Source of the DNA: a phage
Length of the DNA: 50,633 nt
Direction: 5' to 3' (one strand)
Sequence record: NC_102605.1
Each line of letters opens with the position of its first letter. The first letter of the stretch is position 1. Positions 5,831 through 36,665 of the stretch are shown one piece after another. The translations under genes were made by a program, and so were the position numbers. The notes below the pieces were generated by a model. That model did no database searches. It was not told the DNA's origin and saw only the letters and a list, made by a program, of their open reading frames with translations.

Positions 5831-5845
5831 CACGAATTGCTAAAA
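5825..5845 (+). promoter_or_regulatory. Dyad-motif cassette (palindromic variant)
   Basis: aaatagcacgaattgctaaaa; hairpin gttgccg/cggcaac with tataat in the loop. Confidence 0.6.
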
Positions 5846-5897
5846 GGCTGTAGAATGTTGCCGTTATAATTAGCGGCAACAAGAAGGAGATTTTTAG

Positions 5898-7480: not shown

Positions 7481-7873
7481 ATGTTCTTATTAGATCTGTA
7501 TCGCTTTTGTGAGTCTCGCGAGAAATTCAACCGCCAGGAATTAGCAAGATTTATATTCCGCAACCGTGAATGTGAAAGGCTTGCAAAAAATGCGGGGGTA
7601 ACTCCCCGCTATTTCGCATCAAGTGTGAGTAAAGAGTTTATTTCTCGCCTTATGGGTTTTGGATATTTGGACGGCGTACACTGCGAATATTGGTGTAAAA
7701 ACAAGATGAAAAGACCGTTTAATTTCGAACTATATAGCCTGGAAGGTGATAAAAATCGTTATGTTTTGGAAATTATGAATATAGAGAAAATGAGCGATGA
7801 AGAATTATTCAGCAAGCCAGCATTTGATAGATCTTATTTTGAAAGAAAGTTCAGCAATGCAAATTCCGCATGA
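7481..7873 (+). CDS. Hypothetical protein (130 aa)
   Basis: ORF track. Confidence 0.5.
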   Translation: MFLLDLYRFCESREKFNRQELARFIFRNRECERLAKNAGVTPRYFASSVSKEFISRLMGFGYLDGVHCEYWCKNKMKRPFNFELYSLEGDKNRYVLEIMNIEKMSDEELFSKPAFDRSYFERKFSNANSA

Positions 7874-8025: not shown

Positions 8026-8397
8026 TTTTAGTGTCCAACCTGCCAGCATACCAGCAATAAACATTAATATACCCATTGCGATTGCCTGAACGTTAAGACC
8101 GTCATTGTTGCGAATTTCTATTCTTTCCGCCGTGATGTTATCGGCCTTAATGCTTGAGGTGCTCACCTGCTTTTTATTTGACGTGTCAACTTGACCAACT
8201 GCCGATTCTTTGAATGTTGTTTCCTGCTTGCTTGATGTATCCTGCTTTGCGGTCACACCAACAGTCTGTTTCACATTCTCCGCTCCAGCCTGTGCCGTTA
8301 TATCAGGCTTGCTACCAATCAGACCAGGTAACACGCTTGAAGCTGAACAACCAGAAAGAGCAATGCACATCATAATAGCCAGTAATTTTCTTTTCAT
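8008..8397 (-). CDS. Unimolecular spanin (lipoprotein signal plus C-terminal TMD)
   Basis: Lipobox LSGC at the N-terminus, C-terminal hydrophobic helix, last gene of the lysis cassette. Confidence 0.65.
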   Translation of the reverse strand: MKRKLLAIMMCIALSGCSASSVLPGLIGSKPDITAQAGAENVKQTVGVTAKQDTSSKQETTFKESAVGQVDTSNKKQVSTSSIKADNITAERIEIRNNDGLNVQAIAMGILMFIAGMLAGWTLKRNKAA

Positions 8398-14650: not shown

Positions 14651-14679
14651 TTGACTAAATGCCATTTGCGGCATATCAT
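14651..14679 (+). promoter_or_regulatory. Sigma70-type promoter TTGACT-17-TATCAT for the plus-strand HTH gene
   Basis: Canonical hexamers with 17-bp spacer; overlaps the divergent helicase cassette and its hairpin. Confidence 0.5.
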
Positions 14680-14727: not shown

Positions 14728-15336
14728 ATGAGCGAAATCAAAATTGCCGCCTCAACTGGCGAAATAGACAAACGCACAATCAATGGTAACAACGGCGTAA
14801 GACGTGGTAAAGATCGCAAACGTCGCGCACCTGTTAGCGGTTATCTTGTATTAAAGGAAGAAGTAAGAGCCGGATTAAAAGCGCGGCTTGATGAAGTTGT
14901 CAACGCTTACGGCGGTTGCGCTGCCCTGGCGCGTGAAATTGGAGTTAACCTTAAAACAGTATGGGGATGGAAAGAGCGCGGCATGATTTCAACTAAAGGC
15001 GCTGAACTGATCCAGAAAGATTACCGCCGCAAAGGTTTTAACGGTTTCCGCGCTTCATATTGCCGTCCAGATATCAAGTTTGATAATAACGGCAAGCCAT
15101 TAGAGAATCGTTGCAGCAACAGAAAGCTGATGCGATTTGTAACCAAAGAGGAAGCGGAAGCAAGAGGATTTGTGCGGCCTTACGATCCGTTACGGTCTAT
15201 GAGTCCAGAAGAACGCGAGAAAGAGAAAGCGCGGCGCAAGGCTGAACGCGACAAGGCGAAAGAAGAACAGCGCAAAGCAAAGGAGGCCAATCAGAAGAAA
15301 CGCGTTGTGATTTCCGTCGATAGCACTGATTGCTAA
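14728..15336 (+). CDS. Cro/YdaS-like HTH DNA-binding protein with Lys/Arg/Glu-rich C-terminal tail (202 aa)
   Basis: HTH signature GGCAALAREIGVNLKTVWGWKERGMIS; AGGTGA RBS. Confidence 0.55.
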   Translation: MSEIKIAASTGEIDKRTINGNNGVRRGKDRKRRAPVSGYLVLKEEVRAGLKARLDEVVNAYGGCAALAREIGVNLKTVWGWKERGMISTKGAELIQKDYRRKGFNGFRASYCRPDIKFDNNGKPLENRCSNRKLMRFVTKEEAEARGFVRPYDPLRSMSPEEREKEKARRKAERDKAKEEQRKAKEANQKKRVVISVDSTDC

Positions 15337-15394
15337 AAATTCCGGCCTGGCATGGTTTATCATCGTGCCAGGTTTTTTATTTGGAGGTTGAGAA

Positions 15395-18697: not shown

Positions 18698-18892
18698 GTG
18701 AATGATGGTCATCAACAAATGGATATTATGAAATCGGCCTTTACTGATTTTAAAGCTCCTGGCTCTATGTCTGGACTGTTGTCTATAATGAATACCGGAA
18801 CGCTTAACGCACAACAGCTTGAACTTGCAAGCCGGATCGCAGTTAAGGTAATTGCTGTTTTGGGTATCAAAGAAAGTGAAAAAGGGGCGTAA
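18698..18892 (+). CDS. Hypothetical small protein (64 aa) bracketed by two terminators
   Basis: ORF track; weak RBS; terminator immediately downstream. Confidence 0.3.
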   Translation: MNDGHQQMDIMKSAFTDFKAPGSMSGLLSIMNTGTLNAQQLELASRIAVKVIAVLGIKESEKGA

Positions 18893-20389: not shown

Positions 20390-20445
20390 TTTTATTTCCT
20401 CTCTCGTTGGTTGATGCGTGTAGTATAACACGCATCGAATGGCAG

Positions 20446-20466
20446 TTTTAGCAAAAAGTGCTATTT
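20446..20466 (-). promoter_or_regulatory. Dyad-motif cassette (minus orientation)
   Basis: Reverse complement aaatagcactttttgctaaaa; hairpin gatgcgtg/cacgcatc with tatact in the loop. Confidence 0.6.
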
Positions 20467-25758: not shown

Positions 25759-25769
25759 AGCTTTTAACC

Positions 25770-25790
25770 TTTTGTGCTATTTAAACGTGC
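25770..25790 (-). promoter_or_regulatory. Dyad-motif variant (aaatagcac-aaaag-gttaaaa) abutting the J start codon
   Basis: Motif halves present, but no room for a -10 before the ATG. Confidence 0.35.
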
Positions 25791-34637: not shown

Positions 34638-35612
34638 TCAGCCTACTACAAGACCTTTAATCAGAACCAGCGTTAACGGACGGTAAATCGTCAGGCCAGT
34701 ACATTTAGAGGTGCAAGGCACTTTGAAATGCAGGTCTTTAGGTTGCGCGGTCAGCATGTTAAACGCTTCTGGAATCTCAATGCTCATGTTCATTGGATCT
34801 TTTTCGTAAACCAGCGCCGCTTTAGTACCTGCGCCGTCGATATCTTCAAGCTCGGAAATGGATTCGATAGTGATACCGCCATTCTGCTGCTTGAAATAAT
34901 CAAGATAGCTCATGGTTGTTTCCGGCATGCGAACCATCAGAACTTTACGCATTGACGGCGGAATCAGGATCATATTAGCGCGGTGCTGCCCGTTGGTCAG
35001 CGTTTCGATTTTTTCAATCGCTTGCTCTAATTCATCCTGTGCGGTTTCCGGCTTTTTACCAGTACCTGCGGCGTTGTTCCAACCTGCGGAGTTGATAGTT
35101 GTCAGGTTTGGATGATCAAACACGCTGATAATTTTATGCGGTTTAGAGCCTTTGAAAACCAGGTGGTTTACAAGCTGATCATGCGCATTCTGTGCGGCGT
35201 TGGCCTTGCGAGTGGAAAGGCTCTTGCCAGTGCGTTGACCTGCTTTGATTTCGTCAATGGAAATCAGGAACGCATTACCCAGGCGGAACACTTTACCAAA
35301 TTCAGAAGTCATCAGCGCGTCAACAGTTGGCAGATCATCAGTATAATCAGCGATGATTTTTGCGTGCCCTACTTTGTCGAAAGTCTGATATTCAAAGGTT
35401 TTATCTGTATCGGAAAGCTCGGACGTTACAGGGAATACACGCAGTGCAGAACCTGCCGGATATTCTTTTTCATAGGCTTGAGCCTTAATTTTATGAAGCT
35501 CTTGAGCCGTCCAAATACCCATATCAGATGCGTCGTTTTTAGCGCCGCGTAACTGCATATGGTTGGCGATCACGTTTGCTTCAAATTCATCATATTTAAT
35601 TTCTTTAGACAT
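34638..35612 (-). CDS. Major capsid protein
   Basis: About 324 aa after an RBS-supported ATG (track 34638..35627); position after scaffold/decoration genes. Confidence 0.7.
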   Translation of the reverse strand: MSKEIKYDEFEANVIANHMQLRGAKNDASDMGIWTAQELHKIKAQAYEKEYPAGSALRVFPVTSELSDTDKTFEYQTFDKVGHAKIIADYTDDLPTVDALMTSEFGKVFRLGNAFLISIDEIKAGQRTGKSLSTRKANAAQNAHDQLVNHLVFKGSKPHKIISVFDHPNLTTINSAGWNNAAGTGKKPETAQDELEQAIEKIETLTNGQHRANMILIPPSMRKVLMVRMPETTMSYLDYFKQQNGGITIESISELEDIDGAGTKAALVYEKDPMNMSIEIPEAFNMLTAQPKDLHFKVPCTSKCTGLTIYRPLTLVLIKGLVVG

Positions 35613-35655
35613 AATATTTCCCCTCATAGAAAAGCCGTCATAATAACGGCTTTAA

Positions 35656-35675
35656 TATAGCATTTTTTGTTAAAC
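35656..35675 (+). promoter_or_regulatory. Orphan dyad motif in plus orientation inside the minus-strand late operon
   Basis: atagcattttttgttaaa with no plus-strand gene downstream; a hairpin with tattatg loop lies between it and the capsid RBS. Confidence 0.4.
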
Positions 35676-35701
35676 GTTCAAGTGTTTTTTGTGTTAGCAC
35701 G

Positions 35702-36142
35702 CTACAACTGAACTGATAGTAAAATATATCCGTGTGAATATCTTACGTATTCGCCAGTAAAAAACCAACTGGTAGGAAATCCACTTGTTGATATAGAGCC
35801 ATTGTCTTTAACAAAAACAGGATCTTTATACGATGGAATATCCTGTTCATCCTGAGTGATTACCCAAATTCGACCATGAGTTATTACGTTAACCGGATCT
35901 CCGGCGTCGTAATATTCTTTGCAAAAATCCATATAATCACGCGTAACGATTCCGTAATGCTTTGAGTTTTCATTAAAATTGTGGCTGATTATTTTGTAAC
36001 CGCAAGATATGTGATCAACACATACGGCCTTACCTATCACGGCTGAAACATCCATAACTGGCGAGCCATCTATATTATAAAGGCTTGAATCTACCAAGCA
36101 CCCATTTTCAACTATACCTATTATAGAACCGTAATCAGACAT
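35702..36142 (-). CDS. Capsid-associated protein, paralogue of 36186..36665 (decoration-like)
   Basis: Shares YNIDG...GR.WV...TSG...TG pattern with the upstream gene; ATG after GGTGG. Confidence 0.5.
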   Translation of the reverse strand: MSDYGSIIGIVENGCLVDSSLYNIDGSPVMDVSAVIGKAVCVDHISCGYKIISHNFNENSKHYGIVTRDYMDFCKEYYDAGDPVNVITHGRIWVITQDEQDIPSYKDPVFVKDNGSISTSGFPTSWFFTGEYVRYSHGYILLSVQL

Positions 36143-36185: not shown

Positions 36186-36665
36186 TTATACCAGTTGAAC
36201 CTCAACGAGTTTTAGACCTTGTAATTCCGTAAAGTCTCCAGTTGCGATCCAAGTGGTTTCAATTAATCCAGACGTTAAATCAACCTGTCCTGAATTATCA
36301 AGTTTGATAGGTGTTTTGAATGCTGGCGCTTCTGATTCTACAGATAGCATCCAAACGCGCCCTTTAGTCATTACGTTAATTCCGCTACCAGCCTCATAAA
36401 CCATGCGACCATCTTTTGAAGTAGTCTGGAAGTTGGATCGAATAGCAACACCATAAGCATTTCCAGACGCTGCCATAGCCTTAATTAATTTCTCACCGTT
36501 TGCGCTAACTCCTCCATGTTGAACACCAACGCCAACATAAATTGTTGATCCTGCATCACCATCAAGAACACAAGCGCCGTCGATGTTATACGCGGAAGTG
36601 TCAGAAACTTGACCAGGCAAGGCGCGAGCCATTGCAACATGATAACTTGCTGAAATCTGAGCCAT
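36186..36665 (-). CDS. Capsid decoration-like protein (159 aa)
   Basis: AAGGAGA RBS; paralogous to 35702..36142. Confidence 0.5.
   Translation of the reverse strand: MAQISASYHVAMARALPGQVSDTSAYNIDGACVLDGDAGSTIYVGVGVQHGGVSANGEKLIKAMAASGNAYGVAIRSNFQTTSKDGRMVYEAGSGINVMTKGRVWMLSVESEAPAFKTPIKLDNSGQVDLTSGLIETTWIATGDFTELQGLKLVEVQLV

Follow-up and report, generated by a model that had tools for sequence, protein, structure and literature searches.

The one copy of a repeat family that runs backward upstream of the major capsid gene of a T1-like phage lies inside a predicted sigma70-type promoter of that gene, and the architecture of this promoter is conserved in nearly all the distinct sequences in which it was located, down to a capsid protein identity of 54%. 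We propose that the repeat is a marbox serving here as an operator, through which the capsid promoter is repressed or modulated by the host factor that would activate the early promoters of the phage; RNA begun at the capsid promoter could bypass the terminator beside it. We put the probability of this reading at roughly 45%. It builds on the observed marbox matches, promoter geometry, conservation and hairpin covariation, from which we infer the binder, the sign of its effect, the start site and the timing of capsid promoter control.

Phage and locus

The whole stretch of DNA that was analysed (50,633 nt, NC_102605.1) is called the window below. As the 2.1-kb region around the motif shares 99% identity with Salmonella phages GJL01 and YSP2, and 98% with Escherichia phage TLS, the window belongs to Tlsvirus (Drexlerviridae, T1-like). 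The structural genes at this locus are on the minus strand, and the motif falls in an intergenic gap of 89 bp, which extends from the TAG of a decoration-like gene (35702-35704, minus strand) to the ATG of the capsid gene (35612-35610). On the capsid strand the gap reads taacacAAAAAAcac TTGAAC g TTTAACAAAAAATGC TATATT AAAGCCGTTAttaTGACGGCTTT tctatGAGGGGaaatattATG, and the following features were placed in and beside it.

35702-35704, minus strand: TAG stop of the decoration-like gene, homologue of TLS hdeC/gp35
35685-35690, minus strand: A6 tract at about -38 to -43, within the conserved TAACAYAAAAA; putatively UP-element-like
35676-35681, minus strand: -35 hexamer TTGAAC (in relatives TTGCAC, TTGACG, TTGACC)
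35657-35674, plus strand: 18-nt family repeat, corresponding to TLS DR7; its first three bases, ATA, complement the TAT of the capsid -10
35660-35674, plus strand: 15-bp marbox core GCATTTTTTGTTAAA, backward on the capsid strand, -27 to -13
35661-35662, minus strand: TG of the extended -10 (-15/-14), coinciding with marbox recognition element 1 (GCA)
35654-35659, minus strand: -10 hexamer TATATT (in relatives TATCAT, TATTAT, TATTCT)
35647, minus strand: predicted transcription start, a G 7 nt after the -10
35631-35653, minus strand: terminator-type hairpin AAAGCCGTTA/TGACGGCTTT, corresponding to TLS T35; 10-bp stem, UUA loop
35620-35625, minus strand: capsid Shine-Dalgarno sequence GAGGGG
34638-35612, minus strand: major capsid protein gene, starting MSKEIKY

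Mechanical ORF calls lengthen the capsid gene to an in-frame upstream ATG (35625-35627), which lies within the U-tract/RBS region, and the decoration-like gene to a TTG (36203-36205). In the relatives, the capsid protein starts at MSKEIKY (35612) and the decoration-like protein at an internal ATG.

The sequence-only reading had described a plus-orientation copy of the repeat at 35656-35675, between the decoration-like and capsid genes of the minus-strand operon. The copy is real and does lie in their gap, but both ends were off by one base, the actual site being ATAGCATTTTTTGTTAAA at 35657-35674. It is one of 14 family copies found in the window at up to 3 mismatches (0.22 expected; a looser pattern raises the number to 25), and the copy at 1247 has exactly its sequence. 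That no plus-strand gene follows it was borne out by the absence of any ORF of at least 20 aa starting within 200 nt downstream, as was the lack of a -10 at the usual spacing, where the +20 hexamer is TAGCAC (3/6 match, final T missing). On the minus strand the copy is indeed followed by the hairpin at 35631-35653, then by UUUUC, the GAGGGG Shine-Dalgarno sequence and the ATG of the capsid gene.

Likeness of the repeat family to marboxes

Marboxes are asymmetric sites for monomers of the host AraC-family proteins MarA, SoxS, Rob and RamA (the last in Salmonella and Klebsiella). The 15-bp core of the inverted copy matches exactly the marbox pattern gcannwwntgnnaaa quoted in PMC12052159 and, at 15/15 positions, the consensus GCAHWWWWTGYYAAA from PMC6900184, which the T-type copies of the family also match at 15/15; with a third consensus, AYnGCACnnWnnRYYAAAY (PMC3709825), the inverted and T-type copies miss one or two specified positions. 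The window contains 21 exact matches to gcannwwntgnnaaa versus 1.86 expected, and 19 of these are family copies, the inverted one included. A site bound in vivo, GCATTTTTTGCTAAA at ypeC, which is among the Salmonella ChIP-seq sites of PMC10268841, differs from the inverted copy by a single base.

All family copies were aligned, and 19 of them, termed canonical, are each co-oriented with the downstream gene and sit at early and middle promoters. A -10 hexamer begins 20 nt after the AAA of the repeat in 17 of these copies and 19 nt after it in the other two, the probability that at least 17 of 19 would stand at +20 by chance being 2.5e-26. All 19 hexamers (among them CATAAT, TATAGT, TATGAT, TATCAT, TAAAGT and TATAAT) match the -10 at four or more of six positions, with A2 and T6 present, the centre of the site is at about -42, and a -35 hexamer is absent. 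Phage T1 and a Webervirus have 15-17 promoters with the same marbox/-10 arrangement. This is the layout of micF, which in the E. coli genome reads GCACTGAATGTCAAA, 20 nt, TAGAAT, 6 nt, +1: like it, the canonical copies run forward, lie 20 nt ahead of the -10 as counted from their AAA, lack a -35 and are centred at about -41/-42. The RamA site at micF is placed at about -41; a forward site overlapping the -35 defines the class II marbox (PMC12052159, PMC6900184), and promoters of class II are without a -35 (PMC10268841). The phage sites differ from the host ones in being near-identical perfect consensus sequences, while host sites are degenerate, and the capsid-promoter copy differs from class II sites in being inverted and 22 bp nearer to the start site. 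The centre of the repeat (CTTTTT or CGAATT) is more uniform than a marbox needs, an excess that could come from copying between sites or from an additional constraint.

Several other identities for the repeat were considered and rejected. A sigma54 promoter (TGGCAC-N5-TTGC) would have a spacing two bases longer, and half of the copies have GTTA. TTGYTA lies 21-22 nt from the -10 instead of 16-18 and therefore cannot be a -35 hexamer; as a UP element the repeat would be out of register by about 7 nt; and for a T4 MotA box the distance is wrong and the fold match weak. The Lrp consensus, YAGHAWATTWTDCTR, is matched at 13/15 positions and leaves the orientation and flanks unexplained.

The repeat had been called a dyad, and a pseudo-dyad, TAGCA-N5-TGYTA, is indeed present, but its flanks are conserved and the other copies keep strictly to one orientation, which marks the site as asymmetric. 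A phage-encoded dimer bound to TAGCA-N5-TGYTA, activating at -42 and repressing the capsid gene, with the likeness to a marbox a coincidence, would be a natural alternative. Its half-sites are 10 bp apart, as fits an HTH dimer; a candidate exists in the Cro/YdaS-like HTH protein encoded at 14728-15336 (plus strand), the homologue of TLS gp57, a 'transcriptional regulator' that is conserved and has a sigma70 promoter of its own; and a factor made by the phage would provide a natural early-to-late cascade. We nevertheless consider this explanation unlikely, since conservation is not two-fold symmetric: the two sides read aaATAGCAC and TTGYTAAAA, the left half has an invariant G whose right-hand partner is C or T, and all 19 canonical copies point the same way, something for which a symmetric dimer would have no need. 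Moreover, every asymmetric position fits the independently derived marbox consensus, the spacing is that of micF, and the promoter of the regulator gene has a different palindrome of its own. This palindrome, ATGCCATTTGCGGCAT at 14659-14674, occurs once in the window. It lies within the spacer of the regulator gene's sigma70 promoter, extends into the leader of the divergently oriented helicase gene, and is replaced by a different palindrome at the same place in T1; it is likely the operator for the Cro/YdaS-like regulator.

We thus read the family as marboxes rather than dyads. The asymmetric match together with the promoter geometry makes a monomeric host protein of the MarA/SoxS/Rob type, and not a dyad-binding phage dimer, the likely binder, also at the inverted copy. 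The hosts of the relatives are Enterobacteriaceae, which encode such regulators themselves, and the phage would need none of its own. A phage homologue of MarA or SoxS was not detected by phmmer over the six frames of the window (best E 0.33), and a phage-encoded MarA-like protein was rejected as the binder. The phage has two HTH proteins, the Cro/YdaS-like regulator and a 130-aa protein (7481-7873, plus strand; 'HTH domain-containing' in TLS), which is confidently predicted to fold as a winged helix with a helical tail (pLDDT 89); it resembles neither MarA nor Rob and matched nothing in the PDB at E < 0.1. Cells that are not under stress contain little MarA or SoxS and keep most of their Rob sequestered (PMC10268841), and for a virulent phage to depend on them is not obviously safe.

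Genomes labelled in GenBank with the hosts Streptococcus, Campylobacter, Pseudomonas and Vibrio (MBBL140, A16a/C4/A14a/A13a, Motto and Vc1) lie near enterobacterial Drexlerviridae. In the motif stretch MBBL140 is 98.5% identical and A16a/C4/A14a/A13a, Motto and Vc1 are about 73-75% identical; these host labels are probably wrong.

The same family has been catalogued in TLS, where a 2024 paper from the Kropinski laboratory reported 21 occurrences of a 21-nt 'direct repeat', aaATAGCACnnnTTGnTAAAA, suggested that it might represent stoperators, enhancer sites or UP elements, assigned no function to it, and gave only three sigma70 promoters in its re-annotation (PMC11447400). The inverted copy, atATAGCATTTTTTGTTAAAc, agrees with this repeat consensus and opposes its flanking genes, unlike the placement described for the TLS repeats (in the transcription direction, about 76 nt before the start codon). 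According to the text of that paper all repeats follow the direction of transcription; however, its Table S1 has DR7 opposite in strand to its neighbours, and also lists a terminator T35 (-8.7 kcal/mol), neither being discussed (PMC11447400). DR7 and T35 are at the homologous place and are the same two elements as in the window. As for stoperators, those of mycobacteriophage L5 resemble the repeat in that many copies of an asymmetric site are spread across a phage genome; they differ in being bound by the own repressor of a temperate phage and in blocking elongation, whereas the window phage is virulent and without such a repressor, and its copies stand at fixed promoter positions. Our literature searches found no paper linking marboxes with phage promoters and, for T1-like phages, no reports of binding, footprints, start sites or expression.

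Three further observations concern the repeat copies and their surroundings. At 16 of the 19 canonical promoters, a strong GC-rich hairpin with a site-specific stem is found in the 42 nt after the repeat (mean z -3.35; for example at 1914-1955, 5845-5886, 15338-15379 and 20405-20446), either between marbox and -10 or with the -10 hexamer within its loop, and could be folded only by RNA reading through from upstream; possible roles are those of terminators, processing signals or 3'-end stabilisers. At many copies the stretch from the -10 to the RBS also contains a conserved leader that resembles CATCGAAACGAA (e.g., 780-795, 1290-1305 and 2843-2858) and is found in T1 and Webervirus PG14 as well. 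Finally, a repeat-like copy, ATAGCACAAAAGGTTAAA at 25763-25780 (minus strand), ends 3-4 nt before the start codon of a tail-fibre gene, overlapping the RBS; it has no -10 at +20 and is conserved in T1 (25024, plus strand) and in TLS (DR8).

A predicted capsid promoter around the inverted copy

On the capsid strand, the marbox core fills 15 of the 16 positions of the spacer between TTGAAC and TATATT, with its element 1 on the TG of the extended -10 and its element 2, AAA, at 35672-35674. In a promoter scan, TTGAAC-16-TATATT with the TG was the sole sigma70-type match at the capsid gap (9/12). The corresponding sequences were the only promoter-like matches near the capsid start in T1 (TTGACG-16-TATTAT, 10/12) and in Webervirus PG14 (TTGACG-16-TATTCT, 9/12). 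The loop of the hairpin, TATTAT, was also considered as the capsid -10 and rejected, as the loop sequence varies among relatives.

Conservation among relatives

Conservation was followed in 78 IMG/VR loci found by their capsid protein (54-100% identity) and in six GenBank relatives; three of the 78 loci have no upstream region, which leaves 75 informative ones. The -35 begins with TTG in 51 of the 53 distinct sequences where the promoter was located, with a spacer of 16 nt, and the -10 is TATnnT in the located promoters except for three sequences with a 1-nt insertion, which have TTATCA in frame and TATCAT one base on. The inverted copy has a single orientation and register in every relative where it was located. 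In lineages with a capsid identity of at least 62%, the marbox has 0 mismatches wherever the automated search placed the promoter, and it varies at degenerate positions only, although the -35 and the -10 vary. One Webervirus subgroup has at its capsid promoter the G-type variant GCACGAATTGCTAAA, which is also in use at canonical promoters. In another Webervirus subgroup (loci L055-L084) the promoter is kept while the marbox has 2-3 mismatches, including one at the invariant G, and the site is therefore dispensable in that subgroup. In two distant phages (H89 and H90), a 66-nt stretch of the gap is the only part of a 651-base query that matches by blastn, and in many relatives the similarity spans the capsid gene and the gap and ends at the upstream gene, a mosaic replacement. 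The copy had been suspected of being an orphan or a relic; since its orientation and register upstream of the capsid gene are kept across the Drexlerviridae, it is not a relic but a part of the capsid promoter.

Such conservation could arise with no factor bound at the inverted copy, if an old inverted promoter cassette had been co-opted and kept as spacer, TG and half of the -10. TGC and TAT do account for part of the conservation, and the subgroup in which the marbox decays while the promoter is kept points the same way. Against this, sigma70 spacers are normally unconstrained, and here TTTAAC/TTTAGC and the whole 15-mer stand at 0 mismatches while the -35 and -10 vary; a distant subgroup has the other canonical variant (G-type) and not a drifted T-type; and T1 has a second backward copy before another late gene. 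We find this explanation rather improbable.

In T1 (L089), the second backward marbox is at 18833-18850 and is followed by TATCAA, just before the gene of the tape-measure chaperone, and a forward marbox (8362-8382) lies directly before the RBS of terS. Counterparts of these two sites were not found in the window at up to 3 mismatches.

Two other suggestions had been that the copy drives an antisense transcript, which would cross the decoration-like gene, and that a protein bound to it acts as a roadblock to late transcription. The forward orientation of the repeat is indeed that of the plus strand, the window phage has a TAAAAT at 35720-35725, about 65 nt from the centre of the site, and the hairpin folds on the plus strand too (-10.5 kcal/mol). 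Nevertheless, the hexamers at +19/+20 in the window and its relatives (TAGCAC, TACGGC, TATGCG, TAGAGC, TACCTC, TATGCA and TATACA) do not include one that ends in T, so that the antisense promoter fails for want of the final T in every relative read. The DNA downstream on the plus strand is, moreover, a mosaic gene that is replaced in relatives while the site stays, and a monomeric regulator makes a weak roadblock. Taken together, antisense transcription or a roadblock is very improbable. What survives is the idea of a bound protein hindering transcription of the late strand, for which an operator within the capsid promoter is a more apt description than a roadblock.

The terminator-type hairpin beside the promoter

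The hairpin at 35631-35653 folds at -11.6 kcal/mol on the capsid strand, and its stem varies in sequence among relatives with the pairing retained, with compensatory changes at 5 of 8 pairs. The U run after the stem is UUUUC in the window and has 5-6 U in most relatives; a terminator scan of the window, in which the U-tract is short, did not call this hairpin. An RNA family search returned only a chance match (16.9 bits versus a threshold of 127).

The 5' arm of the hairpin starts 0-2 nt after the -10, and the predicted start, G35647, is inside this arm. In folding calculations, RNA begun at 35647 was unable to form the hairpin, while read-through RNA was able to. RNA begun at this start would therefore be without the arm and should escape termination. 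A similar interleaving is found at 15320, where a -10 is in the loop of a full terminator, T57.

Comparison with known promoters and the sign of the effect

The closest parallel to the capsid promoter is that of E. coli rob (MG1655), whose promoter strand reads ...CAGCAAAAAATGCTATTATcc. A 13-nt core, CAAAAAATGCTAT, is identical in the phage capsid promoter and has the same register to the -10 and the TG: in both, a backward marbox lies between the -35 and the -10, ATAGCAT overlaps the TAT of the -10, and GCA forms the TG of the extended -10. They differ in that element 2 is degenerate in rob (GCTGTT), whereas the phage site matches the consensus perfectly, and in that the phage promoter has a clear TTG -35, a terminator hairpin right after the -10 and a viral structural gene behind it. 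The backward marbox between the hexamers of rob was reportedly described by Schneiders and Levy in 2006, with a ternary complex that is said to hinder open-complex formation. Repression of rob by MarA/SoxS is cited in bioRxiv 2024.08.26.609649.

At a second sigma70 promoter, that of pbpG, the marbox spans -27 to -13, and repression was obtained with SoxS in vitro and with MarA/SoxS in vivo, where it was mild (40 to 28.6 units). The capsid-promoter marbox covers the same 15 positions, whereas the pbpG marbox is forward, so that its GCA is distal to the -10 and that of the capsid promoter proximal.

The same host factor might, however, have the opposite effect or a neutral one. Bound in the spacer, MarA/SoxS/Rob could help to open the -10 by distorting the TAT (-12 to -10), so that the capsid gene would be co-activated with the early genes and receive a boost of its own. 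This has a model in the sigma28 promoter flgBP2, where MarA bound at -16 to -30 activates by perturbing the -11 base pair (PMC12781870). As in flgBP2, the phage marbox is within the core promoter, its GCA end abutting the -10, and an extra promoter would profit the structural gene that is needed in the highest amount. On the other hand, flgBP2 depends on sigma28, which melts DNA poorly, and its site is 3 bp further upstream; both sigma70 precedents with a marbox in the spacer, rob and pbpG, are cases of repression; and element 1 of the phage marbox shares its base pairs with the extended -10 TG, which would set the factor in competition with sigma region 3. We regard activation as unlikely. 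Where, as here, the TG of a sigma70 promoter falls on marbox element 1, repression is judged the more likely outcome.

Proposed mechanism and significance

Under the proposed operator function of the backward marbox, a MarA/SoxS/Rob-type factor would activate the early and middle promoters from the forward marboxes near -42, in the class II style of micF, while the same factor, on the backward marbox at -27 to -13, would hold the capsid promoter down, as at rob. The capsid promoter would fire once the free factor drops, which might result from titration by the approximately 20 consensus sites of each replicating genome or, alternatively, from the breakdown of MarA and SoxS, both of which are unstable. 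The hairpin would stop or attenuate read-through from the upstream head genes, and RNA from the capsid promoter would bypass it.

T1 is one of the seven classic T phages. To our knowledge, T1-family phages encode neither an RNA polymerase nor a sigma factor. A wider possibility, of which we are doubtful, is that the programme of the whole T1 family runs on the host mar/sox/rob system, with about 20 perfect class II marboxes driving early and replication genes, a backward operator at the capsid gene (and, in T1, a second one at a tail gene), and replication multiplying the sites until titration of the factor flips early to late expression. What appears to be new here is the assignment of the repeat to the mar/sox/rob system and to the capsid promoter, as the elements themselves had been catalogued before.

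The marbox reading names obtainable host proteins as candidate regulators, would assign promoters to about 19 transcription units, and lets the single inverted copy be understood as an operator within the capsid promoter. Simple phenotypes are predicted for rob, marA and soxS mutants and upon induction by salicylate, paraquat or dipyridyl. TolC, the receptor of TLS, belongs to the mar/sox/rob regulon. If the mar/sox/rob reading is true, infection would be tied to stress signals that the host meets in the gut (bile salts, salicylate and oxidants, for example), and these phages would represent an unusual instance of a virulent phage depending on a host stress regulon.
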